From Botryllus schlosseri (taxonomy: Eukaryota), in assembly GCA_051294905.1 (NCBI GenBank), contig CM119383.1, positions 20,832,001 through 20,896,000 on the forward strand: DNA of 64,000 bases. The letters are read 5' to 3'. A program made the translations under genes and the position numbers. This document shows, piece by piece, positions 1,601-44,700 of the stretch (position 1 is its first letter; every line of letters starts with the position of its first letter). The notes under the pieces are model-generated. The model was given only the letters and a program-made list of their open reading frames with translations, made no database searches and was not told where the DNA came from.

Positions 1601-2875
1601 GACTTTTCCGATGTATTTGGTACCTTACTCAAAAATTTTGGTTTGTAAAAATAAACAAAAAATTGAAAATTAAATAAAATATGGTTATCACCTAAAACTT
1701 CCGGGTATTTTCCGAGTGGGAAATATTGTCGGAAAATCTGCCAGAACATCAGAAGTCAACATGTACGGTTTTCTGTGTAAATTTTCACCGTTTCAAACAT
1801 CAAAACGTTTTCTGGAAAGTTTGCTGAGGGGGATTTGTAAATTTTGGTCACACTTCAGTGATTTTCAAGATCTAGGTCAAGTTCAAGTGCAAATGCAGTC
1901 GGCATATGAGTCATACTATGCCTGCAAATGGTTGGATATGACAAAAGAAAGCATATCGCGTTGTTTTATGCCATAAACCGGACTGTAGGGGCCGATTGAG
2001 TCTTGATCATTAACTTGACCTTGATGACCACTCACTGACCACGCCCATTTGTAAATTTTATATGTATTTTCCATTTTTCGATATCTGACGAACCGCGCGG
2101 TTTACAACCACGGTTGACGGCTTGTTTGAAACCAGGCAACAGTGGCTACGCACTGAAGCATCACATTCCTCTCTCTGACGCCATCCTGAGGGTCAGACTT
2201 GAAAATTGAGAGAGAGAGAAATTTTTTTAGGGGAAAAGCTTGTTTATTTAAACTTATTACAAAACCTAAGACATGTCATGGGGTGTCGATCAAGGGTGGA
2301 ATCGATAGAGGGCTATACTCCGCCCACTTGTAAACCGGAACGGCCCAGATTGAAGACCTGGTGGGGTCACGGTGATAATTTGAAAATTGAAGGTCAATTC
2401 TGCAAAATATGGCCCCACCTCGTAAGGGTTAAAAACGCGCGTGGGGGGTTGAGGGATGGTAGCGCAATTGGTTTTCGCGCAACCTCGCGGTCGTTACCCG
2501 GTTCTACTTGCGTTCTAGCGCGTTTGTGTAATTCATGCTTTAGTTCAGTCAGTTTTTAGAAGTCAGGGTGGAGGAGTTTACGTTATTCGAGTTAAAGGCC
2601 AGTCTATATCTTGTATCTGTCGTTTTTACGTCGCGTAAGAGCGACTCGGGCTCAGTTTAGTCGGGTACCTGGTTCGAATCCGGGTGTCCCCTGTTTCAAG
2701 TCATTGGTTTATCGCGCTCTCCGGCCAGAAGTCAGATATTCGACCGGGGTTAACTTTGTGGAGTCGCTTGAGTCAAAATTAGTCCGCTCGCTCGTTTTCC
2801 TATTAGCATAGCTTATTGATATGAAGTTTCTAGTACCATACTTCATTTTCATCTTCGGTTTTTTCAGAAATAACG

Positions 2876-3500
2876 ATGGAGATTATTGCTAGTACAACAT
2901 ACGACTATAGTATCGACTTGACAATATACATTCGCAATAGAATGGTCTCAGCGAAATTGATTATGAAAGTAGTCTTTTACGCCCGTGGCGTAGTCGAACC
3001 CGATGCGAAAGCGAGAAAGATCGCACCCGACCGGCTGAGCTTTCTAGTCATGGCAAAATCGCCGTTTCATAGAAACGTGCGATTGCCGCTATCGTTGGCA
3101 CCGATGCCAAACGACTTTGATTCGCCACGGAGGAACAATATGATTCAGGAGCAAGGTCATGTATTTATCACCACCCATTTCAATGGCCGCTCCACAATTG
3201 CGGGCCTGATGATCAACGAGGACTTTAAAGCTGAACTGCTCGTCTTTTACGACGAAATGATGGCCCTGTCACCATCTGGACTGCTGCGCTCCGTGCCTTT
3301 GGTGGTCGCTCGCTCGCTCGCCGAACGACAACGTCGTGAGACCGACGGGCCGCAGCGGTCGCCGACCACGATTCTATGTGCCGAACCACGTTCCGCAGGC
3401 GCAACCGGCACCGCCCACTGGAGCAGTAGTCCGCAACCTCGTCGGCGCGGCGGGAAGGCCGAGACGTGTGATTCGGGCCCCGGTCCGAAAGGACCTTTGA
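2876..3500 (+). pseudogene. Family A paralog A1 (about 207 aa), one frameshift in the 3' part
   Basis: Homologous to ORFs at 18414 and 26541. An alternate frame near 3400-3500 restores the conserved end RPRRVIRAPVRKDL*. The 258-aa track ORF reads past it in the wrong frame. Confidence 0.8.
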
Positions 3501-3829
3501 TTTCATTTTGTGCCTGCCTTAAAGTTTCGTTTAACCGTGCTTATGAAGTATTGCCATTACGCCGAATTTTATGCATTGTTTTGCCTTTTTTAGTAATAGT
3601 AAGTTCATTTAATTGTTTTGTTTTGGCCACCTTTGCAAGTATCGTGTTTTAATGCCGACTGTGTCGTTGTTATTTTTTGTTGGCCCCTTGTGTCTAGTGT
3701 GTGTATTTTATTTCATTAATATCAGGTTTTATTGCAATCTTCAATGTTGTATCGCATTTCTTTTAACCTCAATGACTATTTTGCAGATCGTACTATCATG
3801 GCGTTAGTGTAAACGTTTTCTAAAATACT

Positions 3830-4170
3830 AGTTAACCACTGCAATGCGTCTTGAACAGAATTGGGCAGAAAGAGGTCGGTGTCAGCCTGTCGGAACAGTG
3901 CGACGGTGTCAAGCAGGGGGTGGAGTGAGGATGACTCTTCGTGTGAGAAGAAGTACTGTGTAACAGTACGTGAACTTTAGTGAGCATGGCGTTGTTCGAT
4001 CACGCCGTGCTTTCTGAAGCTATATTTACTGTTACATACTATCACAATACTAATATTAAATGGTTGTGTAGAAAGTGTTTTGCATACGAGGTCACGCTAC
4101 AGTGTCTTGCCCGTCTTGCATGTGCTTTTTTGAGTTGTACGTGCAAGGTTTGTCATAACACTGTCTCGTG
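3830..4170. repeat. Conserved A-B intergenic block (other copies about 19370-19800, 27510-27750, 28160-28560)
   Basis: Shared core such as gaagtactgtgtaacagtacgtgaactttagt...ttgttcgatcacgccgtgctttc is visible in all four copies. Confidence 0.85.
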
Positions 4171-4511
4171 ACAAGGGTTTCGTTGTCGAGGGACTAGCTG
4201 GTATGTGTCACTATGTAAACTTCAAAGAGCACAAACTTGTTACCCAAGTTCATGTTCCGTGAAGTGAACATAGTGAGCATAGTGTCTTCAAGCTTATATA
4301 TTACCACCCATCTTCTTTCTGTGAATAGCATTTGGACTTGCAGTTTTATTGTGCAATTCGTATCATGTATCGAATTTCTTTCGCGTTGTCAGGAAGTTGC
4401 GTTTTAATTTTTCTTTACGTTCTTTCATAATGACAGTCATGCTGCTGTGTGGAATCGTGCTTTCAGTAGTTACTTGTATTTGTCTAGAGATACTAAAGCT
4501 ATATCATTATA

Positions 4512-4949
4512 ATGACTAAATCGAACCCAAAGGCCAGCGACGGCTATTTCGTGCAGACTGTATATCAATTTGACGCGTCGCAACATCCTGACATTGTTCA
4601 GTTGGAGACGAAGACTTTACCGATTTCTGCTGATTCTGATCCTGGACCTGCTCCGGTTCCTGACCCAGAGGATCCGAATGCTTATCCACTGGCACCATGC
4701 GACCTGAACCACGAAGGTCGTAAAATGCTCGTAAGTGCTGAGCAATATATGGCTTGGTATGAAGAAAGGTTTCCTGGTCAACAGGAGAAGGTCCAGGATG
4801 AAGGTGATCTTTTCGATGGGTAGGTACAAATCAGTCCGGAATTTCCGACGGGTGGCAATGGAGGAAAGCCCCTCAAGGAGGTCAAACAGACGACGCAGAA
4901 AAAACAAGATGACGAAGCCGCGAAGTTAACGGCGTCTGCTGAACAATGA
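4512..4949 (+). pseudogene. Family B paralog B1 (145 codons, acidic/Pro-rich, unknown), internal TAG at 4821-4823
   Basis: Colinear with and the same length as intact B2 (19989-20426). Reading through the TAG gives ...TASAEQ*. Confidence 0.85.
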
Positions 4950-5305
4950 TTGCTACCTACAAAACTTGCAAATCTCTTTCGTCGAAATGAACTCAAACGT
5001 TACTTGTGCTTTCTGTTGCTTCGAATTCGTGTCGTTCGCTACGCATTTGTTTTAGGTATCGCATTATTTCTGACGTTGTAAAAACTAGTAAAGTCTAACT
5101 CGAACTATACTACATTTCATGACGTACTACATTTCATGACGTTGTCCGTGATATCTGTAACTTGCGTTCAAGTTAACATTACCTCTACAATCTGCCTATA
5201 TAATGTAGCTGTATCAACTCTCATCACTTTTTATTTCGATAGCGTTGTTTGGCAAAAAGTTAACACTCTATGATTTGTTTCGTAAAACAGCACAGTACCT
5301 TAAAA

Positions 5306-6570
5306 ATGTCCTATAGAACTCCGACGAAAAGCCCTTTCGGAAAGGAGAGGAGGAAGAATCCTGATTTTTCTGCCGATTGGTATCAGCATTTCCCGAAAGA
5401 TTTCCTCAGGCCTTACGGCCGCTCTGTCGTTCCGGAAGATGTATCCGACGAATCTGTCAACAGTAAATTGCAGACCTTTACCTGCGAATGGTTAACAAGG
5501 CCGGCAGTTGCAGCGTCCGAGTTTGCCGAAACGCTGCTTCGCAATCGCAACACCACGCCTGCTCTCGAGGATATCATGGATCCGAGAGCTTTCCAACAGT
5601 TTCACGCGCATCTGAATTCCGTTATCAACGAGGTCAATCCTCTCTGGATAAGTCCAGCAAATCCGGCTGGCGAGACGACTCTGACGAAAGAAGACGTGTC
5701 GGCGAGGTTCGAACGCCTTGAAAGTCTGATGATCCAGCAAAAGTCGTCGTTCCTGGATCGATGTATCGATGTCATGGCCGATTGCGGACACGCTATGTAT
5801 GTAACAGCGCTTCATCTCAAAATGACGTCGTTCTTGATGCGGAAAAAAGACGCATGGGCCCTCAAATTTAGATCGCATCCCGATCACGAGGACTTTAAAA
5901 AAATCCTAGCGCTCGGTCTTACGCTGAAATCGTCTTTACCGGATACATGATCAAAAAAGGATTCAATGCCGCGCCAATCGAGACACCGTCGGGAAGACGA
6001 ATTTCTGATTTCATGCTCGACCAACCGTCATCTTCGTCTGTGCTCGTGGGTGTGTCGCAATCACTTCCTACCCAAGTTCCTGCTCCGGTCCCGTTTCACG
6101 GAGCTCCGCCACCCTCCGTTTCGGTTCCACTTTCTGTTCAGGATCCGGCACCCTTCTATCCACCTTCACCTTCCCCACCCGTTCGCATTCGAGTCTCAAA
6201 CGCTCCCGGAATGGTTAGGGCCCCGTTCCCCGTTTCTGTGCAAGTCCTGAGTGGTTCTCGAATGGGTCCAGCTGCGGCACAGGTTTCCGGTCAATTTCCG
6301 AACGGTTCTCAACTACTTCGAAGTCCGACAGTAGTTTCAGCGGATCCTCTTCGTTTAGCGCATGCTCGTCCGATGATTCAAGTTCCGGTAGCGTTTCAAC
6401 CGGATAACGTAGCAGTTGGTGGAAATGTTGCTGGAGCTGCGTTGGAGGACGAAAATGTTCCATGCTCCAGTGGCAGCGTTCAAGGTCAGCTTACGTCCGT
6501 CGGTGTCAACAGGGAGAAGCGAAGCAACCATGACAAGACGGGAAACCCCGAGAAGAAGAAAAACGTGTAA
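5306..6570 (+). pseudogene. Family C paralog (unit I), 1-nt deletion in the A-run near 5900
   Basis: Track ORFs 5270-5950 and 5947-6570 together are colinear with intact C at 29675-30931 (tttaaaaaaatcc versus tttaaaaagaatcc). Confidence 0.88.
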
Positions 6571-6721
6571 CTCAAGAATGAGCTGACGTGTTCGATATTT
6601 CGTTTTGTCACACCTTAACTTTCATTTTGTTGTTCGTTTGTGATGCCTTCGTAAATTTCTTTCGTTTGTTGTTACAGATCATAAATTGTACAACTAGGTA
6701 TCACTCTAGGTGACATACGAT

Positions 6722-7900
6722 ATGAGCAAGCCAACGAAGACATCGTCAAGCCGTCTGCTGTTGTCTGAAAATAATGTTTCACTTGCGAATAGCATCGTTG
6801 CCGACCTGCGGAAGATATTTCCTGACATGCGTCTAGACCATTACTTATTGCGATTCAATATTCATCCCACCAATGCTAACCATCAAATGCTCATGATGGC
6901 TCTATACCGAGTAGGGCTGGGCACAATGATTCGAGTACTCGTATCTGAATCGAGTATTAATTTTAATGATTCGAGTCGAGTAGTAAAAGACGATTTTGTC
7001 GAGTACTGAAATTATGCGCTCCTCACCACTGAAAGTTGATTTATCAACGAAGAGTTTATCAACGATCAACGAGTTTATGCTAATTTCACTGTTGAAGCCT
7101 TAAAACATTGATTGGCCGTATCGTAGCATACGAAACATGAAGTACAAAGCTACAAACGTTACTGGAAATAGCACATTTCCGAAGTCATGATCATCCCACA
7201 ATATTGTCACCAAGTGCAATGAAATCGGTATGGTCGAAAAAAATAACAAAGTATCCTTAATATGATGGATAAAAGGCATTATATTCTTTGTGGTCGCTTA
7301 AAAGGTACAAATTTGAACTTTGACAAATATTATTCTGCTATGACGTCATAATGAGTGATACTCGATTACTCGACTCGACTCGAAGCATTTTACGTGATTC
7401 AGAATCGAATCACTCAGGTACTCGATTTTGCCCAGCCCTAATACCGAGAGATTACCCGCCATCAAGTTCTGGTTGCCATGATTACTCAAGCGTTACGACC
7501 TGCCGTACTATTGCCGCAGGATGCGTTGCGTGTCAACAGTAGTTCTCAAACGTTGCCGGCGTCACTACCGACTGATCTGAATGCTCCTCTACATCGAACT
7601 GCTTCTCCGGTGCTTCCAGTATCGTCGCAGCTTTCTGTACAAGTGCAGAGATCTCCTAAAGAGAATCGACGGTCGCTACTCCATGACCTGCTCAAGGCTC
7701 AAGAGCAGAATGATGCACCAACGGTTCCAGTTACGGCACGGAAACGTGTCAAAGTCGAGAAAGCTTGTCAAACGGAAAGAATTCCGCGACTCATCGATCT
7801 GCTTCCTATCAAATACGACAAGAAACTTTTTCCACCGGATTTAGTCCCGGAATCGCCACCGGTTTCCGTTCAAGTTGATACGAAATCTGTTCAAACGCTT
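6722..7900 (+). pseudogene. Family D paralog D1, interrupted by a MITE; 3' end uncertain
   Basis: Removing 6912-7448 gives ALYREITRHQVLVAMIT, matching D2 ALYREMTRHQVFVTMIT. Confidence 0.85.
6912..7440. mobile_element. hAT-type MITE, 529 bp
   Basis: TIR tagggctgggca / tgcccagcccta; exact 8-bp TSD ataccgag (6904-6911, 7441-7448). Confidence 0.92.
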
Positions 7901-9030: not shown

Positions 9031-10781
9031 TCATGCAGGCTTGTAGGATTTCAGTGTGGATTTATTGAAGTTGTGATACTTCTGACGGTGTAGCTCAACA
9101 ACTTGCAGCAGACTTTTCTTTTGGCGCTCATCATCTGTGATGATCGAAGCAAAGTCGGTGTTGAGTTTAACTCCTCGTTCAGCAGCGTCATCAAAGACTT
9201 TGACATTACTTACAAAATGGCTCATTTCATTGTATGATGAGGCCATTGTTCCACAGGCTGATTCAACCATTCTCCATAACACTCAAATTCGTTGAACAAA
9301 TGCCATGACTGAGGGCCCACTTAATCAGCCAAAGTGGTGTTATCCTATATAGTCCTTTCTGACGAGAGAATGGGTGGCCCACGTCGATAAGATTGCGGTT
9401 TTTCAACTTTCAGTAGGCGGCTTGCAATGCTTTTTCTGGTATCGCAACTTTCTTTTTCTGAGAACCAGGCATAAACCACAGTTTCTTTCACAATGTACCA
9501 TGGATGCTTCTTCAACTTATTGAGAGCAGATTCAGCAACATCTTTATCGGTAGTTGCGTAACCGCGTATCTCCTGAATGAACCGCAAGTCGTTTCCCGGC
9601 GCGTCACGCCCAATGCTGCAGTCCAGCCAAGCAGGAACATAGAAGAAGCTCAGAAACAAGTTCATGCGTTCCAGTTGAGTCGAGAAACTTTCCGAGTATT
9701 GCATCTGATCAGCCCACATGAACATATTCAGAGAATATAGAATAGTCCCCATCCACCTGGCATGATGAGTAGGACCCGGCTTCTGATGTGTTGCACGAAA
9801 TGCAGCACCTAAGACGGTTAAGGTGTTGATGACGCATAGCTTGTAGTCATCCCTTGAAAAAAATCTTTCTTGGCTAAGGCCTGTGCTAAATAAGCTTCAA
9901 CGGCCAACGCTCTTTGTTTGTAGCGCTCTGGGACATCCAAAATTCGAGGGGAAGCATTCCCATCTATTTTTGTCCAGCTTTTTTTGAAATTGTTGAATAA
10001 TGTGTTTTCAGGACCTGTGGTTTCAGGTCCAAAAATGCTTTTCCCCCAGACACTCTTTACCACCAACTCCAATACATGATGGCGATAAGCATGATACAAC
10101 ATTTTTCTACCTATGTGGTCTTCCAGTAACTTTGCAGCTCCTTTTTCCATCCACTATTGATTGATGTCGTGTCAAATGCCAACGCGGTAATGGAATTCTA
10201 CAAACTCCAAGTCGTTATCAAATCAAATGCAGTTTTTGCTTGGACCTCTCCTGTAGCATTGTCAATCTTTTGAATTCCAAGTAATTTTCCATTGGTATGC
10301 TGAGGATGAGAAGACAAAATAACAGCCAATGCTTCAGACTTTGTTCCATACCTGTCTTCTGTCAACTTTCCATCCCAGTGTACAGCCGCATGATTCGGTA
10401 GGTCTTGTTGAAATGAATCGTATATTTCATGCGAAATCTCAAGACGATTAGCTTCTCTACATCTATTTATAGTTGACCTGGATAGCACAAAGTCATTCAA
10501 GTCCCCACCGCATGCCTGTATGAAGGCACTTACTTATCAACATAGTTGCTACTTATCAACATAGTTGCTTCATTATCGGTCAATTTAAGACGATCCAGCG
10601 CAGCAGTAATCTCTTTGTCATCCAACAAGTTTCTTGTTGTTGTAGGGCATTCTTCTTTCAGATACAGCAAATACTGTAGAACTTGGCGTAGAGTAGGTAA
10701 CTTGGAGTGAATAATACACTCAGACGAATATCCAATCAAATAATGACCAGACTTCGATCTCGTTCTTGGTGGGTCCGACAC
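9031..10781 (-). pseudogene. Degenerate DDE transposase, hAT-superfamily-like (hATm type)
   Basis: Minus-strand ORF pieces show YLIG...KLPTLRQVL, VHWDGK, KLLGIQK, (C/Y)RHHVLELV, HHARWMGTILY and SYNEMSHFV. Element ends were not found. Subfamily assignment is from memory of these motifs. Confidence 0.65.
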
Positions 10782-11872: not shown

Positions 11873-14851
11873 ATGGAAGAGGATTATATATCCAGGCTTC
11901 GGGATTTCTCAAAACTGGAGTTTCGCGCGAAAATAGAAGTGATCAGCAACGGAAGACCAACGCCGCAACTAAAAGGTTTGCTTCAAAATATGGGAAAGAA
12001 GAAAATGCGCACTTTTCAATCGGACTGGTATACCCGAAAAGAATGGCTGTGTGGCTGCGCTTTAAAAAATCGTCTTTACTGCTTTCCCTGCCTTTTGTTT
12101 TCAACTTCTATGTCTGGACTACCACGGGATATTGTGACTAGAAAAATTTGACACGAAGCCTCAGCAGACATGAGAGATCGATAACTCATATTCAAAGCAC
12201 GATTTCTGCAAAATATTTCGGAAATTCCAGGATCGATACGGCTTTGAACGAACAGCGGAGACTCGATATTAGCATCCACAATGCAAAAGTAACGGAAAAC
12301 CGAGATATTTTAAAAGACCTGATTAATGCAACCTGCTTGTTAGGTAAACAGGAGCTAGCATTTCGAGGAAACAATGAGAAGGCAAGCAGAGCTGTTACAT
12401 GCTTTTGCCGAGAAAGATGAAAGGTTGGCAAGACATTTGGAGACATCCAGTGTGTTTTCTGGCTTGTCAAATCGAACGCAGAACGATTTAATTGAGGCAG
12501 TCGGTGATGTAATTCGCAATGATATAAAAAGTGAGATTAATGCTGCCAAATTTGTCGCTGTAGAGGTAGACGAAACAACGGATGTCACAAATAAAGCACA
12601 GATTTCTGTTATTTTCCGCTATGTAGAAAAAGGGGGATTAGACTGTGTAGTCAAGGAGGCCTTTTTGGGATTTGATGACGTAAGTGAGGACAGACGAGCC
12701 TCTGCGGTAGCTTCGTATGTCTTGAGTGTATTGGAAAAATACAGCTGTGTCGAAAAGCTAGTAGCTCAGACATATGACGGGGCTGCTGTGATGGCATCAG
12801 AGCTTAATGGAGTGCAAACTAAAATTAAAGAAAAAGTACCAGGGGACATGTTCACACACTGCTATGCACAAGCTTAACCTTGTGCTCCAGCATTCAGCAA
12901 AATGTATGCCTGAGAGCAGAGCGTTTTTTAAAACACTTGAGGGACTAGGGCAGGGGCGCGGGCGACATACGACCCGCGGGCCGGATTCGGCCCGCGAAGG
13001 GATTTTGTCCGGCCCGCGGACAGTTTTCCATCTTACATCATAATGTGACCCGCAGCCCCAGTTTGCTGAGATTCCTTACTACTTGCTTACTACGTCAAAT
13101 TTTAGTGATCGTATGTTATTATATACGTGTATCCGCAGCGTGCGAGAGTGAAGCTTACGCGTAAGTTCGTCGAAGCGAGAAGACTTGCATTATCGGCATT
13201 TACGATGTACTCAACCCTAATATCGTCTGTGGTAATCATGGTGTTTGTCGACTACAATGATCATGATCATTTACACCAGGCTGATATATCTTATTTTTGA
13301 ATCCGTAACCGTCGACTTGTAGCACGTCACACTTCTAGGCTTTCGTAAGTCACCGCCCATGCCAGGGGTCGCTAACTAAAAACTGGTCATGGGCCTCATG
13401 AATTCAATATCGAGATTAATTAGGCCACATAGTTGAGAAACGACGCTATCTCGTAACCTACTCAAACCCTATTTAAATGATATCTTGGTAAATTTGGGGT
13501 ACCGGGCTAATCGAACGCCTTGAAATCTTAATTAGGCCTAAGGATTGCACCGTCTGTTCGTTGATCAGTTGGAAGCAGACATGACGGCGCCTGTATAACA
13601 ATGCTATTCTCAAATCCACAGTGTCTTCGTCATTATCGGCGAGAAATGGCTTTGAATTGACATTGCTGTCGTTAAAATACATTCATTAAATACGATTTAT
13701 TCCTTGTATACGCGGATAAATTGGCGAATAATGTATCGATTCAGCAATCCGGCCCGCCAAGTACCTAATTTTCCTATATCCGGCCCGCCGACTGGAGAAG
13801 TTGCCCGCCCCTGGACTAGGGTCATTTTTTAGCAAATCCTCGAAGCGCACCCTTTTATTGGATGAAGTTGTGAAACGGCGCTCACCATGAGCAGCGTCCA
13901 CAAGATGGAGTTCAAATTCCCGCCTGCTACAGACAACAAGCATGTACCAATCTGATCTGCGTGCCGTATTTCGCATCATTATTGAAAATCCTGACAATTG
14001 GGATAATGAAACTCAAATGATGGCCGCTGGATATTGTCGTTGGCTGACAAAAGCATCAACATGCTTTTTAATTATGGCATATGAAGACGTATTTTGTGAA
14101 ACCGATGCGCTTTTTAGAGTGTTGCAAAACAAGGTCATGGACATTGGCTATTGTTGTGCGCGAATCCAGGACACCATCGAAGCTGTTGAACGCATGAGAA
14201 GGGAGTTTAACATGATGTAACAGCGATTTGAACAGAAATGCAGTAGACTTGAAGTAACCGATAGCGGAAGAAATCAGTCGGTCAGAGATGAGAGAAAACG
14301 AATGTTCTACAGCATTTTGGATAACATCCTTGTTCAAACGAAAGCTAGGTTCGATCATTTTGGGGAGCTAGCTTTCCTCGGTTTGGTCGACTGTACAAAA
14401 TTTAATGAGATGTCACGACATTTTGATGACACCAAACTACAGAGCCTGTCAAAATATGCAAAGTTTTTTGACTTTGTTAGACTAAAGACTGACCTCATCG
14501 GACGGTACAGCTCGCAAACATTGAGGAATGAGTGAAAATCCAGGAGAGCTTCTGAGATTTTTAACCCAGAAAGATCTACTTCAGACGGTTCCAGAGGCCA
14601 TCAAGTTGCTCCAACTGGTGCTAACTGTGATAGCTACTACAGCGTCAGTGGAAAGGTCTTTCTCTGCGTTAAAAAGACTCAAGACATACAGTCGAAATAC
14701 GACCGATTCAGGGCGACTTTCATCTTTGGCCCTCATCTCAATTTAGGCGAAGAGACTTTTGAAACTGAAGGAGAACAAGGAGGACTTTTACAACGAAGTC
14801 ACAGAAATTTTTGTGGCAAAGGATAGGCGCATGGAATTTATTTACAAATAA
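11873..14851 (+). pseudogene. hAT transposase (TTF zinc finger / ZMYM1-like type), frameshifted and MITE-interrupted
   Basis: LYCFPCLLF, ELAFRG, VEVDETTD, QTYDGAAVM, HCYAHKLNL and TASVERSFSALKRLKTY (hAT dimerisation region). Confidence 0.88.
12951..13813. mobile_element. hAT-type MITE, 863 bp, inside the hAT transposase
   Basis: TIR caggggc(gc)gggc; TSD gactaggg (12943-12950, 13814-13821). Removal restores KTLEGLGSFFSKSSKRT. Confidence 0.9.
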
Positions 14852-23112: not shown

Positions 23113-23115
23113 ATA

Positions 23116-30931: not shown

Positions 30932-31081
30932 ACTGACGTGTTTCATATCTCGTGTTTTTGTGATTTGTCAAACTTTAACTTTCATTTTCTTGTTCGTTTG
31001 TTATGCTTTCGTAAATTTTATTCGTTTCTTGTTACAGATTATTAATCGTAGAACTAGCTGTGACTCTAACTGAAATACGAT

Positions 31082-31786: not shown

Positions 31787-32137
31787 CCTGTGACATGTCA
31801 CATTTTAAAGTTGCGATGCATTGCTCGTCGATATTGTCATCTCTAACTTTCGTTTTATGTCATTATCGTGTGTTACGTTCGTTATTTCGTTCGCCTGGCT
31901 TGCCGCTTTCTGCTTTTTAATGTACCTTCGCTATGCTTTAGCTGATTTCATTTCTCTATTGTCGCACCCATTTATGTGTGTCATATCACCCGCAACGTTC
32001 GTTACTTAATGTATTCGTTCTAATGTATTCGTTCAGTACAGACTGATAACTGTAAATACACGTGTCTTTTGCGAGTACTAATAGTTTCACGCTCTTCTTT
32101 ATTTTCCAGAAAATACAATAGCAGTCTAATAGCTAAA

Positions 32138-33367
32138 ATGTCTTATAGAACTCCGACGAAGAGTCCTTTCGGAAAGGAAAGGAGGAAGAATCCTGATTTC
32201 TCCGTCGATTGGTATCAGCATTTCCCGAAAGATTACCTGAGGTCTTACGGTCGGTCTGTGATTCCGGAAGACGTATCCGACGAGTCTATCAACAGTAAAT
32301 TGCAGACCTTTAGTTGCGAATGGTTAACAAGGCCGGCAGTTGCAGTGTCCGAGTTTGCCGAAACTCTACTCCGAAATCGCAACACCACGCCTGCCTTCGA
32401 GGATCTCATGGATCCGAGAGCTTTCCAACAGTTTCACGCTCATCTGAATTCCGTCGTCAACGAGGTCGGTCCTCTGTGGGTAAGCCCAGCGAACCCGGCT
32501 AGCGAGGCGACTCTTACTAAAGAAGACGTGTCGGCGAGGTTCGAACGCCTTGAAAGTCTGATGATCCAGCAAAAGTCGTCGTTCCTGGATCGATATATCG
32601 ATGTTATGATCGATTGCGGACACGCCATGTATGTGAGTGCGCTTCATCTCAAAATGATGTCGTTTTTGATGCGGAACAAAGACGCATGGGCCCTCAAATT
32701 TAGATCCCATCCCGATCACGAGGACTTTAAAAAGAACCCGACCCCTCGCACTTACGCTGAAATTGTCTTTACTGGCTACATGATCAAGAAAGGCTTCAAT
32801 GCAGCTCCGATCGAGACCCCGGCTAGAAGACGCATTTCCGATTTCATGCTCGACGGTCCATCATCTTCGTCTGTGTCGGTGGGAGTCGTTCCAGATGTTC
32901 GATCTCCTGTTTCGGCTCAAGTTCCGCAAGCTCCCGTTCCGTCTCAAACACAGGCACCAGTCCGTGTGCATGAGCATGGTGTCGCCTATCCTGTCGTGCA
33001 GATACCTGTTCCTGTTCAGGTCACGCATCATTCACAATCCCCTCTTTCTTCCGTACAGTTGGCATCGGTTCCGGTTACTCGTCCTGCACAGAATGCTGCT
33101 TCAATGGTTCCGACACTGGATCGATCGGATACCGAGCCGTATGTACCTGCTACTCAAACCGTCAGGGAAGCTGCTCCTTTGTCGACTAATCAATCGGTCT
33201 CGTCAACATCTGTTCCAAGTGCTGCATCTGATGAGGAGAGCGTAGCATGTTCCAGTAGTAAAGTGAAAAGGAAGTCCGCATGTGTTCTCGAATCCAAGAA
33301 GCGAAGCAAAGTTGACAAGGCGGGAAAGCCAAAGAAGAAAAAGAAGAAACATCTCATTCTGGAGTGA
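32138..33367 (+). CDS. Family C paralog C2, 409 aa
   Basis: Intact ORF; N-domain very similar to C1, different low-complexity linker, ends KPKKKKKKHLILE. Confidence 0.85.
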   Translation: MSYRTPTKSPFGKERRKNPDFSVDWYQHFPKDYLRSYGRSVIPEDVSDESINSKLQTFSCEWLTRPAVAVSEFAETLLRNRNTTPAFEDLMDPRAFQQFHAHLNSVVNEVGPLWVSPANPASEATLTKEDVSARFERLESLMIQQKSSFLDRYIDVMIDCGHAMYVSALHLKMMSFLMRNKDAWALKFRSHPDHEDFKKNPTPRTYAEIVFTGYMIKKGFNAAPIETPARRRISDFMLDGPSSSSVSVGVVPDVRSPVSAQVPQAPVPSQTQAPVRVHEHGVAYPVVQIPVPVQVTHHSQSPLSSVQLASVPVTRPAQNAASMVPTLDRSDTEPYVPATQTVREAAPLSTNQSVSSTSVPSAASDEESVACSSSKVKRKSACVLESKKRSKVDKAGKPKKKKKKHLILE

Positions 33368-33380
33368 TATCGTACGCATA

Positions 33381-33778
33381 TCGTATTGTTGCAAATGTGG
33401 ACTCACTTTCGACCCGTAAATTTCCCTACCTTCCATACGCATGTCGTGTGTTACGTTTAGTAATTCTGTTAGGTTTATTACTGAAATGCTTCGTTGAACG
33501 CCTGTTTCTTTTTCGTTGTAGTAGTCGATTTAAAAAGCTTTTGCTTTATAACGTATTTTGTCTTTATGTAAATATTGCCTCGTATTGTTGCAAATGTGGA
33601 CTCACTTTCGACCCGTAAATTTCCCTACCTTCCATACGCATGTCGTGTGTTACGTTTAGTAATTCTGTTAGGTTTATTACTGAAATGCTTCGTTGAACGC
33701 CTGTTTCTTTTTCGTTGTAGTAGTCGATTTAAAAAGCTTTTGCTTTATAACGTATTTTGTCTTTATGTAAATATTGCT
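33381..33778. repeat. Apparently perfect 199-bp tandem duplication between C2 and RepHel
   Basis: tcgtattgttgcaaatgtggactcac starts at both 33381 and 33580. Confidence 0.9.
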
Positions 33779-33891
33779 TCGATTCGTTCTGTTCTTTTTC
33801 CAGTTGCTAGTTACAGTTACCTAATGTTACAAGTCATGTGATCTACTTGAAGGTTCATACCGAACACCACATCATATAGAGACATATCATA

Positions 33892-36800
33892 ATGTCTGGC
33901 AACACAATTATAATCGATTCGGAGGTGAGTTTCCATTTCTTTACTGTTTCTTTTGACAATGCAATGTTTGTGTCGTACAGGCCTCGTCTAGGCGTGATGC
34001 AGAAGTGGCCCGTTCCGCCGAGAGGATGGAGCGGTCTCGTATCTTAGCTCGTGCTTATTTCGGAGGCACGTTGCTACCGGAAGCCGATCAATCGTCTCCT
34101 GCAATGACATCTGCCGATAAAATACGTCGTTGGATCATCAGACATAGTTGGAAGGAGTGCGACGTGTGCGGTTCCGTTCTCCCTTGCATCATGACACCCG
34201 GAATCATGACTGACTGGACGCGTGCCGCCAGCACCGAGATGTCCTTGTCGTCGTTCTGGCTATCGTATCCCCAGGTTATCGGATTGGCCAGACGTTTTAC
34301 GTGGTCTAACGCGTTCCGATCACGATGTTTTGGCATTATATCGTCTGTCTGTTTTACGGTTCCTCGCCTCGTCAACAACACGGATATCGAGAGAAGAACG
34401 GTCCTGTGAGAGCTTGTCTCGTTTCCGAATCTGTACAAGACAGGTTGGAGGCAATCGACGATCCTGTCATACGAGATCGCGTGGACGCGGCATATCGCTA
34501 CCTCTTGCAATGCCCAGACAGCGCCTATGGGTTAATGGATTCTCATCATCGCGACGGAATTCTGCCGTCGCGTCTCTCGGTTGGAAGGCTATGTCGGGTA
34601 ACGCAATCATAGAGTCGTCAGAACAGGCTGATAATAGATGTCAGACATACTCTTTTCAGTTTCATTATGTGGAGACCGGTCTGTGGCCGCTCCTCTATCC
34701 TTTCAAGTGGCAATGCGAGTCTGTTGTCGAAGACGAAGGAGCTCGAAAGAGCGCCAAGCGAATGTACTGCCTCAAACTTACGTGTTCCGTTTTCGATTAC
34801 TGCGGGATGTTTTCCTTGCTGAGGTATCAATACGACAGGTGCGTAGGGACTTTTTTCCTCGTATTACACATCGATATGTTTCTATATGTTGCCAGATGGA
34901 TCTACAAGACGGTGACGGGCGCGTTAAACGATGCCGGTAGCTTTCATTGCTCGCCTGCACGCGCGCTAGACAGTAAGACGTTCAGTGCCACGTACTGGAA
35001 ATGGCAACTAAGTTATGTTTTGGACGCTGTCAAACAATATGGAATGCCGGATATCTTTATCACCATTTCGCCGTACGAATGGCAATTTCCGGACAACGAA
35101 ATACTTCTCGATCGTTTTGTGACTCTTGGACGTGGCCCGACTGGTCTCGCAGCTATCGAATCTATGCATCAAGCACATGTTCTCGAAGAAATCCTTCGCA
35201 AGTATGTTTCTGGAAAACAAAAGCACCGTTGGACCAGACACTTACTGCGCAACACCCGGACCGGTGCTAACAACGTTCACACCTACTTTTATAGGCAAGT
35301 ATCGTTTTTCCTAAAACTTGACGGCGTCATGTATATTCTTTTGCTTTTTTACGACAGATTCGAGTTTCAAAAGCGTGGAACACTGCACGCGCATTATATT
35401 GCCTGGTTGGAGGACGTTTCTTCTCTAAATATATCGGATCTATCTGCGGATCTGCCGCAAGAAGACAACGATTTTGCGGAGTTGGTATACACTGTGCAAA
35501 AGAGCAATAAACGAGTTGCTGGCATTGAAGTTCACGACGGCCCCTCGCAAGTAGAAACCGTTTCTGACGTTCCTACCCTTGTGTTGCACAGATCTCAGGC
35601 CGCGCACCGATTGAACTTACGTGTGTACTCTGAAACTCTGCTACGTACATTGCGGTGTGCCATGGACGTCCAGCTCAGCGACGGCAATAACATGCTAATG
35701 AAGTACGTCGCTGGCTATGTTTCGAAATTTCGAGAAACATCGGTTCCGCGAGACGTTCTCTTCAGCGATTTGGAGCCTAACACTATCGCCTATCGATATC
35801 TCAATCAATTATGTCCTGACGAGCCCGAAATGATACTGACTCTGGCCGACTTCAAAATGGCCTATACCTGTTCGGATACTAAAAGGTATCTGGTACCGAC
35901 GTTGGAACGTGCCCGTGAGGATAAGGTAGTTAAGGCATATATGTCTCGTCCGTTATTCGAAGAAAACATGACGATGTATGAATACCTACACCGGTACACG
36001 GTTACTGATGACCGTGGTCATCGACGCAGGTCGCAGAAAGATCTTCTGGTTGGATTCAAATTCCTCGATATGTTCACCGATGGCTATTTCTTTCAAGATG
36101 CAATCTTAAACACTCCCTTCAGGAACTTGGACCACTTGGAATTGAATGACTTTCAACGTTTGCCTCAAGACATTCGTCTGTTCTCGTTCGCTGTTCACAA
36201 CAGAGCATCGTTCTGGCAAGACAAAGACGCAGTCATACGACTTTGTAATGAACGTGGAAGCAAGAGATATTACACTGTTACATTTTGCGCTTATCTGGAC
36301 AGTCTCTTTGCCGTTTGGCGGCGTTATTTCCATATGGAAATTCCTCATTCTGCTCTCGACATTCAGGAATACAGCGACCAACCGAGTACGTGCTTGTCAC
36401 CACATCAGGCCGCGTTCGTCAACACGGTAGTGGAAAGATTGAGATGCTTCTCCGAGAGGGATGCCGAAGCCGTTGAAAATCAAGACGAAGAAGACGAATT
36501 CGATCGACCCTATTTTCTACTCTGCGGTGAGCACGGAACAGGTAAATCGTACTGTTTGTCGGAGATCATAAAAAAGGCCGTCCGATTGGCTTCCAAGATC
36601 CTTGTGGTTACGCCTACCGGTTTGTTAGCTACAACGTACAAAGCCTTGTTCGGAGACGACATAACGGCAGACACCGTGCACGCAGCGTTTCGGTTGGCTT
36701 CAGGCGTGGAAGGTCATCGAGCAAACGTTAACTGGAATATACGTCTCTTCGATCTTATTCTGATGGACGAGATCTCGATGGTTTCAGTAGTCCATGGAGA

Positions 36801-37627
36801 TCACATCTCATCGACACTTGCCTCTTTTGAGTCAACATTGCGTCGTCGTACTTTGTGGCGATCAACACCAACTTCAGCCGGTACCTGTCGATGGTTATAC
36901 CGGCAGCCTTTTCGATCACCGACAATTAATGGGACGTTGCAATGATACTCGTTTGCGCAGTCAATTTCGTACGAGAGATAACGAACTGTCGGACTTTCTG
37001 CGAATTTGTCGCTTAAGAACGCCGTCTGCGGCGGAAATACGTCAATTCGCATCCGGGATCGTTCTTTTAGACGACGATTCTCCATCTGACGAAGACTTGA
37101 TTCATGTGCATGATGAATACCCGGAACATGTTGTTCTTACATTTACCCGTCATTCGGCCAGGCGGTTCAATGAAGTCGTTCGCAATCACGTTTACAAGGG
37201 TGTTTTTCCTGTCAAAATGTGTCGTTATCCAACTGCTGATAGTCAGCTACGACCAGTTTATGAAGGCATGCCGATCATGTTGACGGAGAATCGAAACAAG
37301 AAGCGGTCATTCGTCAACGGTCAAATTGGTCGGATACACAGTGTCATCGCTAATACGATATTGGTAGAACTGCCCGATGATAGACTGATACGAGTGTATC
37401 CAATAACAAAGCCCGAAGGTGTTTATTTTCCTTTCATGTTGCGGCACGCCGGTACCATTCACAAGGCACAAGGTCAGACGTTGTCGTCCGCGATCCTCTG
37501 GTTTGATTCTAGCAACGTGAGCCCCGGTTGCGCGTATGTAGCCATGTCTCGTGTCAGATGCAAGGACGATCTTCGTTTCTTGACTACGCCGACGATACGT
37601 CACTTCAAACCTGCCGTGTCAAACTGA
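33892..37627 (+). pseudogene. Helitron-type Rep (HUH, Y2) / PIF1-family SF1 helicase; introns 33925-33980, 34839-34895, 35295-35357; about 4 frameshifts
   Basis: Rep motif 1 PDIFITISPYEW; motif 2 YFYR|FEFQKRGTLHAH after splicing; motif 3 KYVAGYVSK. Helicase: Walker A GEHGTGKS, Walker B LMDEISMV, CGDQHQLQPV, TIHKAQGQTL, AYVAMSRVR. N-terminal CxxC...CxC. Shifts near 34215, 34350, 34590, 36823. Confidence 0.92.
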
Positions 37628-38004
37628 CGACACGCGTTGACGACACTGTTGTTACCTTGTATTTTAGTGATCCGTTTATGTCACTTAAATCCTGGTTTGT
37701 CGATGTGGATGGCAGGATATCCATGTCGTATATTTTTTGGGCTATCATATCTTGTTGCTTGTTTCTTCTATATGTGTCCAGTGACTGCTTGCTCCAGTGC
37801 CTTTATCGACCTTTCATTTTTACTTATATTCCTCCCGTATTTCCTTCAAAAACATGTGCTAATATCTGTTTTATCTTTCGTTTCGTGTTATCAGTTAGAC
37901 TTGCGTACCATGCGATGACGTTTCATTGGAGTGACTTATTTGCAGTATCACACTTTCATAATCATTCACGATTTTATTTGCAGATACTCGTGCTTAACAT
38001 TACA

Positions 38005-38883
38005 ATGGCTAGCTTTGTGACTAAAATTGACGACGGTAAAGTTGCTGAAAATGAGGAACGTGGAGGCGTTGTTGAATGGTGTCAGCAATTTCCAAAAGAC
38101 TTCCTTCGGATGTATGGTCGATCGGTGCAACGGGAAGACATCACTGATGACAAGTTCGATGCAAAGCTTCATCACTTTAACTGTGAATGGCTGTCAAGGC
38201 CATCTGAAGCCATGTCTCAATTTATCCAAACTTTAGCCAGCAATCATGACTTCGGAAAACCGCTAAAGGAATTGCTCAACAATGCTTCATATAATACCTA
38301 CCAGGTACATCTTGGACACATACTAAGTCAGGTTCAGCCGCTGTGGGTTAGTCCGGCTAATCCCGAAAACGAAGTTACTCTAAGCCTTGCTGATGTTCAC
38401 GAACGGATGAACAACCTGGATCAAGTACTTGATTACGAGAATTCACCGTTTTTTTAACGGTACATCGAAGTTATGATCGAAGCCGGGAACGCATTATATC
38501 TGAACGGCATTCACCTTTTGGCACTGAGTTTCCTACTGCGAAACAAAAACAAGTGGGCAGGTAAGCTTAGGGCCCATATCGACAACGAAGAGTTTAAAGC
38601 AAATGCAACCACTGAAAACCTCGCAAGCAACCTGTATCGTGGATATGTCATTCGTAAAGGCATGAATGACACAACGCATGTGTCTCCTGAACACTCCGCA
38701 CCGGCTACGGCTGAAACCTTTCCGGTTCCGATACTGGTGCGTTCTGATACAGAGCCGATCGAAGATGCTATTCAAACTGCTTCATGCGACCAAGCCAATG
38801 CGCAGCATGATCCGGCTCTTCAAAATGCCGTCCAGACACCGAGCCAGTTGCTGGACCTTCTGTTAAAAAGACAAGAAAAATAG
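38005..38883 (+). pseudogene. Family C paralog C3 (divergent, shorter), single in-frame TAA at 38455-38457
   Basis: WCQQFPKDFLRMYG...FNCEWLSRPSEAMSQF. Track ORFs 37528-38457 and 38473-38883 share one frame. Confidence 0.85.
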
Positions 38884-39314
38884 GCACACGGAGTGATAGC
38901 ATACAATGTTATTGCTTGTCTTTCTTGTTTCGCGTACCATTGTTCGTCTTTTTGTAGTATGTTGTGGCTTTGTGGTAATACCGTTTGCTTTTTCCTTGTT
39001 CTTGCGTTGCATGTTCTGGCTTTCCTGTAATCTCGTATACGAAATCCCTTTACGAAAAACAACGAAGGTACGCTTATTTCCAGATAATCGTGCGTTTCCG
39101 TGCATTCGAGATTCCGTTCATTTCACCTAAATCCTGGTTTAACGATGTGGCCATAAGGATATCCCTGTCGTATATTCTTTGAGCTGTCATTTCTCGTTGC
39201 ATGTATATTCTTTATCGTAACCCTTGTCAGTACTTTTCGTGCTTTGAATGATACAAGTTTATCATTCGTTGTCGGTACTAATGGCGCTCATTTGATTTCC
39301 AGAAAAAACTAGAT

Positions 39315-39680
39315 ATGTCATTTAAATCCGAAGTCCTGTGGCACTCCCAGCCAATGGAACATCAACGCGAAATCTGCACCAACATTCCAGTCTCCAAAAC
39401 TAGGAACGAAAAAGTCGTATCACACGATCCTAACCAAAGGTATGTCACATATTTTTTTTTCGATTCGCTGTATTACCTACTCGTATTTATTTCAATTTAC
39501 AGGTTTTCACAACGTCATCTGATGGCGGCGAACTTCGAAGCGGAGGTAAACAAAAAATACTCCTTCTCACGACGTCCGCTGATGACGGCGAACTCCGTAG
39601 CGGAGGGAAACAAAAAATACTCGTTCTCACGACGTCCGCTGATGGCGGCGAACTTCGACGCGAACACAAAAACAAAATAG
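39315..39680 (+). CDS. Family E gene E1 (about 100 aa after removing intron 39440-39502) with in-frame 20-aa repeats
   Basis: Acceptor tttccag at 39302 then ATG; gtatgt...ttacag intron; 60-bp tandem repeats encoding KKYSFSRRPLMAANFEAEGN-like units; homolog at 23116. Confidence 0.6.
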   Translation: MSFKSEVLWHSQPMEHQREICTNIPVSKTRNEKVVSHDPNQRYVTYFFFDSLYYLLVFISIYRFSQRHLMAANFEAEVNKKYSFSRRPLMTANSVAEGNKKYSFSRRPLMAANFDANTKTK

Positions 39681-40527
39681 TTTATTGCATATTTTCATCC
39701 TTTCCAATAACTTATCCGTTTCTAATACATTGTTTTCATGGTGGCCTTGTCACTTGTGATTCTTTGTGATGATGCGTCGAGTGTAGTGTTGATAAGGTAA
39801 CAACGGTATGTTAAACTTTACCGGCAGGATAGCGTCTTATTATAGCTAACGTGCCCGAAAGTTTTGCGTATCGTCTCACATATTTATCATTTACACGGTT
39901 AGTAACGTGATTTCAATACGAACAACTTGCAGGTCATATAGCTTCGTGCAAAAGCGATACGGTCTACGAAGTCATACTCATTGATTCACTTGTGCGTTGA
40001 CAGAAGGCTAAATACTTCGACGGAGGAGCGGATAACGTGTGAAGTGTACAAATCAGGTGTGACGTGCTGACGTAGATAGTATCGACAATAGGGCAAAATT
40101 CAGCGCAGCATAGTTCAAAGTACACCCATACGACGCCGAATTTTTCCATTTTGAATCACGTATTTGTCATTGTATGATCGTCGACTTCAGCGCGATGAAT
40201 AGCGATAGACCAGGACTCTAGGAGAAGCGTATCGTGTCTTATGCGTATACTGAACGATGCGATCGACCTGAAAGTCTGCCATGGGATGTAGTTCGACGAT
40301 TGGGTGCCACAAACAGTCATCCCATGCACCTCGGGCGGGCTGGGAGCGGCTGTGACGTCATAATCGAGTAAAATCCGTTATCCCTGTGGTAACTTTTCTT
40401 ACCTACCCTCAGAACACTTGAATGTGACCTGGAGGATCGGCAAACTGATAGTCTGCCTGGAGGATATTTTACATTGAAACGGTATGAAGACATGAACAAA
40501 GAAGAAAATCCAATGGACTGCCTGGAG

Positions 40528-41782: not shown

Positions 41783-43200
41783 GCCTGGAGGATATTTTAC
41801 ATCAAAACGGTATAAGTACATTATGACATGGACAACGAAGGAAATCCAGATATACAATGGAAACTAGTTCAAATAAAAAAAAAAGTACCTATCATCACTA
41901 ACTAATAACAATTAAAGAACGAGTTACCTCCCATCGTACGTAGGCCGAGATGGGTATTGCATGGAACAGGAGACAAAGGAGAATTTTGGAACTTCGAACA
42001 GAAAGGCCTGCAATTACATCCCGCAGACAACGTAATGTGGACAAAAGATAATTCAGACCAGGGATCACCAACACGCGAGGTCATGTTCTGCGGCCCGCGG
42101 ACTGAATTGAAATTGCGGAAGAACGCTTAGTAATGCATTTGGAAATGCTGAAATTGATCTCAGTTTGAACATGTTGTTTTTTCAACATATTGTCGTTGTT
42201 GTTTCAAAGTAAGCTATTCCCCCGTGTCCAATACCAGTATTCCTCACTAGCTGATACGGCTTTCGCAATGGTAACAACATTCCATAGAGGAAGAATCTGC
42301 TGATATGAATGGGCATATATTGCCTTCCGTGGAATGGCTCATCACTGCCATTACCGATTCTTAGAAAACGACTTCGGGCTCCCCAGAAGACCAATCTTTA
42401 CGGGCTCCCCAGAAGACCAATCTTTACAAATAAGTAATTTAAATCCGTGAATTTTTCAGCAAAATCGGTGTTTAGCTAACCTCGTTATCGATGATGTAGT
42501 TCAGGGGTGGCCGATCTGCGGCACTAAATTCGATTGAGATGTTTTGGCGGCAGTCAATGTGCAAACTGAATTTACGAATTCACTCCCTAATCAATGAGAG
42601 GTCTGAAGTATTCTTGATATTTTCTTTGCGCTGCGCGCGGTTCAACCCCGAGTGGAACTTCGATTTTAATACAGTGTCGTGTCTGAGCCCCACAGTTTAT
42701 ATGCGAACATCAGAGGAAATGATGCGCCCCATAGAGAAATAACAATTTGCAATGGTTTTCTCCTCATCACGAAGGAGACTAGTTTCTGGAAGGTATGCGT
42801 TTTGGTTAACCAGTCATGCGTTTGGGTGAATATAACATTTCCATTATAGCGGCAACCCTGATGGGAGGTCAATAAATAAACAGTTGGTCCACGTTAAGAT
42901 GCAGCACAGAACTATGAAATTCTTCAAATTATCGAAGACACCCCCAGCATAAACTCTACCGGTTGATCTGATCACACGGGCTGAGAAAGGATAAATATTC
43001 GATAGTAACATGTAAAACTTTACTGTTAAATGAGAAACTACATTGATACTTATGACGAAATTCACTCATGAGGATGAAAAAATTCTCGCGCTTGGCGCGA
43101 CTAGAAAACGAACCCCCATGGCTATTCATAGCATGACAATGCACGATTTGCGTGCTCATAGTAAATTTTATACTCAATCCGGAGTTTACTGATGATGGAC

Positions 43201-43456
43201 AGAGAAAGAGAGAGAGAGATATGATATTCTTTGAGATGAGATGCTTTGACGACGGAGTTGCGATACGGCCATATGAGGTCATCTAGTCTGCGCCCCGTTT
43301 TTTTTCTCCTCCATGCTATCCGGGATTGCTGAGCGCCTAGCAGGACAGCTGCGGATACCAATTTTCGAGTCTTTGGTATGACCCGGCCGGGGATCGAACC
43401 CACGACCTACCGCTCGAGAAGCCGGACGCATAACCATTACACTATCTCGCTCGGTG
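43201..43456 (-). mobile_element. tRNA-derived SINE
   Basis: Minus strand has A box tagtgtaatgg and B box ggttcgatccc, then a non-tRNA body gggtcataccaaagactc...ctgctaggcgctcagca and a (TC)n tail. Confidence 0.8.
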
Positions 43457-44115
43457 GACAGTTTAACGTAGGTATTTAGCTTCCAGTCAACTAATTACGA
43501 CTATGCACTGGAATGCAGCTGTAGGCTACATAAGTAATTGAAATGCGACCACGAATAGCAAAAAGGTTGGCCACGAGCACGCCTGATTCAATTGCTGCCG
43601 TGTGGTTGTTGTCAGGTATCGTGCGCAGCTCATAGTTCAAGTGACTATCACGATATTTCAGGTATCGTGCGCAGCTCATAGTTCAAGTGACTATCACGAT
43701 ATTTTTTGTTGTATTTGTATTTCTTCAATAAAATAATATTTTTTTTGTGGTAACTGTGTGCGCCGCCTATGTTAGAGAGCACCGCGTTTTACCGACGTAG
43801 AAATATCAAGACTGCGTTGCCTATTTTGATCTCAATATTGAAGTCATGCGGCCCGCGACTAGTTGAGTTGACAACCCCTGCCTTGGAACTTTGCCCATGC
43901 ATTAACCCCGACCTTGGAACTTTGCACATGCATCAGGAATAAATCTACTTATGCGTTATGCCTTCCTTTTCCTGCTTCTTCATAGAACGAATAAACATCA
44001 TTATATACCCCCTCTATTGTCTCGTGTAGCGTATTCCAATTCTAATTTGAACCTAACCCTCACCGTTTGCCTCTTGTTCTACAGATGTTCATGTAATTGC
44101 GACCAGCCAGCTAGA

Positions 44116-44700
44116 ATGAGTAGTCCAAGAAAAGCCCCTTCGGAAAAGGAATCGAAGAAACTGCGGTAGATTAGTGCTAAAAATGTCTCTCAACACCACA
44201 TATACGTCCGACCAATTAGGCCGTAAGAGATTTCGTGACGACGTGATCACAGGAAGACTGCAGAATTTCAGCAGTACATGGCTGACCACTGACCAGGCCC
44301 AGCCCGGCAGTTTCCTAGTTTGCGGAAACTCTACTCCGTAATTTCGATGTATCAGCAGGTATGGCCAACCCAATGGATCCACGCGGGCAGGCTTGACAGG
44401 ACCATCTGGGATGCATGAACGAGGTGGCGCCGATATCGGTTAACCTAGTTAACCAATCGGACGAGGTATCCCTAGCGAACGAACGCCGGGGTAGTCAGCA
44501 GAATGGAACGTCTCGTCTCGAACAGAGGTAAAATGTCGATCGTTATCTATTCTTGTAATCTTACGAGAAAAGTATGGAGGTTGCAACGTTTCTTGTACAA
44601 AAACAAGTATATTTAGTCACTACGAATGCGCACAGATCCGGAACACGCTGACTTCAAGAGAATGGTGGAACGGGTACCGACTACGGTAACATGATTTGCA
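44116..44700 (+). pseudogene. Heavily decayed family C copy
   Basis: aaaagccccttcggaaaaggaa matches the C start. Recognisable remnants FAETLLRN, MDPR and LRMRTDPEHADFKR (compare FRSHPDHEDFKK). Acceptor ttctacag at 44084. Confidence 0.7.

Follow-up and report, generated by a model that had tools for sequence, protein, structure and literature searches.

A multi-gene Helitron-like array of Botryllus schlosseri with the marks of a spliced-leader-resolved operon

Analysis of a 64,000-nt stretch of the Botryllus schlosseri genome (GenBank assembly GCA_051294905.1, contig CM119383.1, positions 20,832,001 to 20,896,000 of the forward strand; below, the window, numbered from its first letter) revealed a same-strand gene array of a Helitron-like element. 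The array encodes the Rep-helicase protein RepHel and genes denoted A to E, and splice acceptors without a matching donor lie ahead of 17 of its ORF (open reading frame) starts. We consider it probable that the array is expressed as an operon of the type known from Ciona, resolved into separate messages by spliced leader (SL) trans-splicing. That it forms a single transcription unit is likely, though unproven. The novelty lies in the operon marks on a multi-gene Helitron-like array and in a family-wide acceptor at the start of the conserved partner gene C.

The array is present at 2.3-44.5 kb in three rearranged partial copies, with unrelated transposon debris between them. A first interpretation of the letters alone (the sequence-only reading) had described a single cassette, which has to be replaced by these three partial units. 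The fullest copy (25.3-40.4 kb) has the order 89-bp repeats, A3, a 39-codon ORF, A-stub, B3, C1, D2, C2, RepHel, C3, E and tail. Copy 1 breaks off within D1, and copy 2 lacks D-C2-RepHel through a C1/C3 fusion (20760-21126 aligns at 29672, and 21125-21496 with 38646-39003). The features are as follows.

2280-2866, +, region upstream of A1, a candidate promoter or outron with one TTTSSCGC and one TGASTCA; aligns with 18200-18370
2866-2867, +, A1 acceptor AG, 8 nt ahead of the ATG at 2876; outside the stretch surveyed for RNA
2876-3652, +, ORF A1, whose tail is frameshifted against that of A3; no homologues found
3785-3963, +, acceptor 3786 followed by an Arg-rich ORF of 39 codons (3844-3963), with copies at 19324 and 27480/27530
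4486-4949, +, B1 acceptor (4487/4489) and ORF B1, with an early stop at 4823
5289-6570, +, C-I acceptor (5290) and C-I, with a frameshift near 5900
6676-7779, +, D1 acceptor (6677) and D1, which is split by an insertion at 6911-7441
17826-18405, +, 89-bp GC-rich repeats and region upstream of A2, a candidate promoter
18405-19031, +, A2 acceptor (18406) and ORF A2
19965-20426, +, B2 acceptor (19966) and ORF B2
20746-21386, +, C-II acceptor (20747) and ORF, a C1-type start fused to a C3 tail; D, C2 and RepHel deleted
21498-24983, +, duplicated tail unit with an E-like copy (acceptor 23109) and a repeated stem motif
25300-26531, +, array of 89-bp repeats upstream of A3 that holds 4 TTTSSCGC and 4 TGASTCA, a candidate single promoter
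26531-27158, +, A3 acceptor (26532) and ORF A3
27857-28070, +, A-stub acceptor (27858), within a segment absent from the other copies
28920-29342, +, B3 acceptor (28921) and ORF B3; a diverged B copy carries the host SL at the homologous position
29658-30931, +, C1 acceptor (29659) and ORF C1
31036-31786, +, D2 acceptor (31037) and ORF D2, with a ratio of nonsynonymous to synonymous substitution rates (dN/dS) of about 1
32108-33367, +, C2 acceptor (32109) and ORF C2, with a conserved all-alpha domain of about 220 aa
33802-37627, +, RepHel gene with its acceptor (33803); two predicted introns (33925-33980 and 34839-34895) and a GC-AG intron (35295-35357) seen spliced
37982-38883, +, C3 acceptor (37983) and C3, broken at 38457-38473
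39301-39680, +, E acceptor (39302) and E, with an intron at 39440-39502
39931-39932, +, last acceptor-like AG, candidate 3' end of the E mRNA
44083-44483, +, decayed C with acceptor 44084

All 17 AGs that the sequence-only reading had placed ahead of these starts are present, with the RepHel G at 33803 instead of 33802; B1 has a TAG at 4487 and a GAG at 4489. The distance from AG to ORF start is 7-44 nt at 16 sites and 88 nt at RepHel, where two short upstream ATGs intervene, as they also do at the decayed C. The pyrimidine tracts differ in quality, with 8-13 pyrimidines in 14 bases and only 8 at B3 and C-I. The description of the acceptors as unpaired also held: no donor in any of 15 spacers matches more than 7 of 9 consensus positions, the best in the two short C-D spacers reaching 4-5, and the GT intron donors at 33925, 34839 and 39440 score 8/9. 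Weak donors are still possible on sequence grounds, because a GC donor is used at 35295. The spacers are 106-436 nt long, and no AATAAA was found within 40 nt of the internal acceptors in 9 internal spacers; one occurs at 20432, about 315 nt ahead of its acceptor. About ten further acceptor-like sites, overlooked in the sequence-only reading, are present, at 3786, 19324, 27480, 28055 and 28130 (ahead of a 39-codon ORF), at 23109/24979 (E-like copies) and at 21758/23674/39932.

The 17 sites are not 17 independent facts, because four A, three B, C-I/C-II/C1 and two D sites are copies of one another; allowing for paralogy leaves about 9. Acceptors were scored as YAG with at least 9 or at least 10 pyrimidines of 14, without another AG nearby, within 50 or 90 nt of the start (four settings), against 1000 dinucleotide shuffles per spacer. 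The counts for the 17 sites were 9, 14, 13 and 17 (expected 2.7, 4.6, 4.4 and 7.3), under a rule that was fixed after the sites had been inspected and with the passing AG in several rows differing from the one first noted. The 9 sites whose flanks do not align gave 5, 8, 7 and 9, with 1.5, 2.4, 2.3 and 3.9 expected (P = 0.008, 0.00014, 0.0014 and 0.00035). The excess over chance, about threefold, is real but modest. In the three cassette regions 66 AGs on the + strand and 35 on the - strand pass the rule, and the acceptor evidence is only moderately specific because of these 66. This leaves room for a reading in which the AGs are mostly chance matches in T-rich spacers or ordinary 5' untranslated region (UTR) intron ends, multiplied by duplication, with only B trans-spliced: chance would account for 3-7 of the 17, weak tracts occur at several sites, and D shows no selection. 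Set against it are the excess over shuffles in all four settings, the lack of good donors, RNA contig ends that fall on predicted AGs, and an acceptor at the C start that is kept in relatives, compared with 11 of 404 control ORFs (both below). We regard it as highly improbable.

Evidence from RNA was sought over 26400-40400 in three raw runs (X18, X14 and X12) and one contig set (X1), 4 of the 24 listed. In X18, 47 reads end at 28931, and their loose end consists of 21 foreign letters followed by 9 letters, so that the junction falls precisely on AG 28921. These 21 letters form the 3' end of the SL consensus that Table 1 of PMC3795323 lists as 'Chordata 1'. A search of the window that allowed up to 3 mismatches did not find them. 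In the SL-bearing B copy the ATG follows directly past the junction.

Contig ends in X1 also fall on acceptor AGs. Among the six listed, contig 2 starts at the B3 AG (28920) and contig 6 at the C3 AG; it is at such a point, we infer, that paths with the leader and without splicing would join in an assembly graph. Contig 3 extends to 32113, where the run of four genomic A behind the C2 AG finishes, and contig 5 to 37984, the one genomic A behind the C3 AG; each has 4 unaligned letters. Contig 5 does not continue into C3, because contig 6 shows the C3 exon to be genome-like there. Contig 1 begins at 26523, 10 nt ahead of the A3 junction, and is ambiguous, since the genome and the leader tail are alike in 8 of 10 letters. 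The sequence-only reading had suggested an SL or a common leader at its AGs; the SL part is supported by the host SL at the B-family acceptor and by the contig ends on the B3, C2 and C3 AGs, while no common cis leader appeared.

The spacers are transcribed in sense. All 59 mapped X12 reads are sense, and they pile up in 29202-29668 and 39476-39942, with the following bins empty (29669-30135 for the first). No run of the four has depth beyond 39943, which the acceptor-like AG at 39932 adjoins. Two ordinary internal introns were seen spliced, the E intron at 39440-39502 (8 X18 reads and 3 X12 reads) and the RepHel GC-AG intron. A joint 27733-28718, at the A-stub segment, was present in X1 and 2 X18 reads, with almost no depth. 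Six X14 reads join mid-C2, at 32321, to other sequence upstream, which makes them a piece of C within a different transcript; this loose end is not the leader.

These data bear on whether each gene, or small group of genes, instead has its own promoter in the short spacer and is SL-spliced as a monocistron with a short outron, no long polycistron being made. As described in the passages of PMC7986045 and PMC4691747 on SL use, one SL serves single genes and operons alike in tunicates and Ciona outrons peak near 100 nt, which fits the 106-436 nt spacers and keeps separate promoters in play. B was also read without C1 in X18, and the relevant part of PMC3691228 shows for a colonial ascidian that transcripts linked over a 227-nt gap are no proof of an operon. 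On the other side, upstream RNA reaches the next AG (the X12 pile-ups and the X1 ends at 32113 and 37984), so that no free promoter DNA is left in the spacers; contigs cross two junctions, and promoter-like motifs cluster upstream of A. Separate promoters are in our view unlikely.

The motif in question, TTTSSCGC, occurs 6 times in the 2.4 kb upstream of A, 0 times in 6.3 kb of spacers and once in a 17-kb control, and TGASTCA occurs 6, 1 and 2 times, the counts upstream of A being non-independent because they fall in repeats. We take these to be E2F and AP-1 motifs, respectively. In the operon model, transcription would have a single start, within the GC-rich repeats upstream of A, and the host SL would be joined to the lone AG before each ORF, as was seen for a B copy. 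The T-rich spacer would double as the 3' UTR of the upstream gene and as the source of the branch point and pyrimidine tract, and the upstream mRNA would end at the downstream AG, as suggested for B-C1, D2-C2, RepHel-C3 and E. By relying on the SL machinery in this way, the element could have acquired or multiplied genes (A, B, D, E and extra C) with no need of further promoters.

Several observations weigh against the operon model. The surveyed RNA stretch covers 9 of the 17 acceptors and leaves 8 outside, and the direct SL reads come from one site in one run. The B copy that carries the SL is mostly 88-95% like B3 and departs from the window sequence at about 29385; since the reads come from this diverged copy, they demonstrate SL use for the B family, and not for the B3 copy of the window or for an operon. 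In X18, C1 depth is zero beside a B depth of about 46, and because of this the SL-bearing B may sit outside any operon. No leader was seen in X14 and X12, where depth was mostly under 2. No RNA depth was found over 33872-34338, and the RepHel acceptor is uncovered. X1 is RNA by guess only and may include DNA, although it shows the 35295-35357 intron spliced; its contigs 2 and 3 span the B3-C1 and C1-D2 junctions, but across two genes a contig is not the same as a single molecule, and the start of contig 4 falls within a predicted intron. The ends at 32113 and 37984 are most simply explained by poly(A) at the acceptor, which is deduced and not read from the 4 letters. The RepHel frame of the window copy is broken near 34.4-34.6 kb and 36.8 kb. 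Finally, dN/dS between array copies, our measure of selection, is 1.0-1.3 for D and 1.95 for the 39-codon ORF, with no selection seen in either.

We searched a metagenome for relatives of the element, which gave 74 related loci. A C homologue is present in 24, and in 22 of these it is on the same strand and downstream. C occurs in 19 of the 26 loci whose sequence extends through the RepHel end and at least 800 nt further; the other 7 have best-segment identities to the query of 21-29%. The C start was taken as the first in-frame ATG, or in four loci by homology to group members, and L022, in which C is upstream, was excluded. A pyrimidine tract plus YAG abuts the C start in 19 of 23 loci. The exceptions are L023 (CAG 1 nt from the ATG, failing the tract rule), L049 (site at 39 nt), and L010 and L056 (none). 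Counted by flank-similarity group, the acceptor is present in 6 of 10 (0.12 expected from shuffles), a measure of conservation and not a P value, because the groups share descent; control ORFs, which include some RepHel starts, have the same placement in 11 of 404 cases. The acceptor ahead of C would predate this host, being retained in distant relatives with RepHel and C alone.

The relatives also bear on a third possibility, namely that a 5' leader exon encoded by the element is cis-spliced alternately to each acceptor, in the manner of the adenovirus late unit or retroviral env. RepHel starts in relatives have an acceptor under the loose rule within 51 nt in 13 of 13 cases, at 0 nt in five related loci, so that both RepHel and C starts carry acceptors. 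Strong donors 0.4-1.2 kb upstream of RepHel number 11 in sense and 1 in antisense across 12 regions, although 7 of the 12 have none. A cis-spliced leader may be the ancestral mode in these relatives. Within the window, no donor above 7/9 lies upstream of any A, the host SL is the sole leader seen, and no cis joint or other loose end falls at a pre-ATG AG among the rows listed. In particular, none of the 7 joints listed for 26400-40400, at low depth, is a cis joint ending at such an AG. The adenovirus-like shared leader raised in the sequence-only reading is not supported in this host by these results, the one leader seen being a host SL absent from the window. We consider a cis leader improbable as the mode of expression of this array.

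Several loci (L003/L005/L012/L021, L015 and L049/L056) are permuted head to tail, like the window, which suggests tandem arrays or circles. L009 begins about 200 nt before a strong donor and ends in an A-run about 250 nt past C. The window itself holds a separate two-gene family member at 47654-48410, in which another, decayed RepHel fragment precedes a C homologue nearer the coral type. Named records in the family include Phallusia, an ascidian, and the coral Desmophyllum, in which a C-like protein (OS493_019926) and a RepHel (OS493_019947), both listed with a 1,840,441-base contig, form a candidate pair.

Corals (anthozoans) are not known to have an SL. SL is stated for hydrozoans in the relevant part of PMC11067881. 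We offer, only tentatively, a model for an undescribed marine-animal Helitron-like lineage with a fixed RepHel-then-C plan. In hosts without SL, a cis-spliced 5' leader would pass over the 3.6-kb RepHel frame to reach C, like retroviral env; in tunicates the host SL would have allowed an operon of 8-9 genes without intercistronic DNA.

The RepHel sequence places the element among Helitron-like elements by its combination of an HUH Rep with a Pif1-type helicase. Profile matches were to Helitron_like_N (E = 2e-6; 28.6 bits, just under the cut-off of 28.9), AAA_19 and PIF1. The HxH and YxxxY columns are conserved, and PDB entry 7LCC (Helraiser) was matched. The helicase scores higher against microbial Pif1-like helicases (E = 4e-29) than against Helraiser (E = 6.5e-17), and the protein is short, about 1210 aa. 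The intron at 35295-35357 is in frame and 63 nt long. RepHel introns were probably gained in this lineage, because intact relatives encode RepHel as one open frame. We found 58 RepHel relatives, and none in the viral contig set.

Neither the window nor the contigs of relatives showed clear ends of the type of Helitron-like elements HLE1 (5' TC, 3' hairpin plus CTRR, A-T site) or HLE2 (short terminal inverted repeats, T-T site). A motif with a 9-10 bp stem is repeated three times, at the end of the tail unit (22110-22200, 23960-24050 and 40275-40360), and is a candidate element end or origin; it was rejected as a proven element terminus, since its folding is no better than that of shuffles (z 0.1-1.4). 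Directly after it, 40375-40400 and about 24165-24180 resemble what we take to be antisense 28S rRNA, possibly a target-site relic or a SINE piece.

Comparison of array copies indicates that C and A behave as proteins and B weakly so, and that D and the 39-codon ORF lack such support. The dN/dS is 0.12 for C (two pairs) and 0.59-0.83 for B. For A, synonymous sites are saturated, with proportions of synonymous (pS) and nonsynonymous (pN) differences of 0.75-0.81 and 0.34-0.47, respectively. A Pfam search gave no family match for proteins A-E, and a tblastn search of the 74 related loci gave no match for A, B, D, E or the 39-codon ORF. For A, the homologue search was empty, the Atlas look-up was blank, and the structure model was unusable (predicted local distance difference test score, pLDDT, 36). 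C was modeled as an all-helical domain (pLDDT 89.7, 94 sequences) and has 571 homologous representatives at 50% clustering, the cluster members being unnamed. Foldseek searches with C of the PDB and viral sets gave no match at E = 0.001, the Atlas gave no usable match, and comparison with VIA gave a best Z of 5.9, to generic helical bundles; such absence of a match is not proof of a new fold. Its conservation and model make C a candidate for a second functional protein encoded by a rolling-circle element.

The array copies are separated by decayed gypsy-type reverse transcriptase (RT), transposase-like and hAT-like (DUF4371) pieces and a LINE RT, at 445-894, 9345-10150, 11873-14220 and 15093-16916. 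Beyond the array are a 70-bp minisatellite (45495-46760), a nested inverted-repeat element with telomere-like internal repeats (54134-55520), a 52-64-bp repeat (58646-59368) and a Plavaka-like transposase (60108-63342). A 28S rRNA fragment, from 53167-53264 onward, breaks off into non-rRNA sequence beside an inverted repeat arm, presumably much like the 5' junction of an R2-type retroelement. An Rfam scan gave no SL RNA or ribozyme families, only weak repeat matches and the 28S fragment.

SL-resolved operons are known for host genes. No paper on a trans-spliced or polycistronic gene array of a Helitron or other transposon was found in the open-access literature. If correct, the operon model would show a eukaryotic transposon carrying many genes on one promoter. 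The conserved C acceptor would then allow cis- and trans-splicing at one and the same junction to be compared directly between hosts, and, if the switch between the two is true, a mobile element that changes its splicing mode with its host would be a natural test of SL operon origin.

In the adenovirus major late unit and in retroviral env, many or alternative acceptors lie just before start codons, downstream of the replicase. The leader of the Botryllus array differs in being a host SL added in trans and not an element exon joined in cis; the cis model concerns only the relatives. As in HLE1, HLE2 (HELIANO, PMC11417382, in its description of these groups) and Helraiser, an HUH Rep and a Pif1-like helicase are combined in one protein, and as in HLE1 and HLE2 there are extra ORFs beside RepHel and tandem copies. 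Unlike the captured domains described there, the conserved partner C has no Pfam domain. The same part of PMC11417382 does not mention trans-splicing, and its supplementary families may contain this lineage; PMC11934779 and PMC13085455 treat other Helitron groups, and nothing on the RepHel-C lineage was found in the portions concerned with these.

The closest parallel is with the SL operons of Ciona intestinalis, as presented in the operon sections of PMC1488885. Those consist of host genes, mostly in pairs, with a 16-nt SL, whereas the present array belongs to a mobile element, has up to 8-9 successive acceptors, a 24-25-nt SL, and an operon that is inferred. Ciona operons have no intercistronic DNA, and AATAAA is absent near the junction in 16 of 18. 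The Botryllus array shares with them same-strand neighbors, an unpaired acceptor and no AATAAA close by, and the further Ciona traits of an SL on the downstream gene, an upstream 3' end at the acceptor AG and loosely co-expressed members offer the pattern with which its RNA can be compared.

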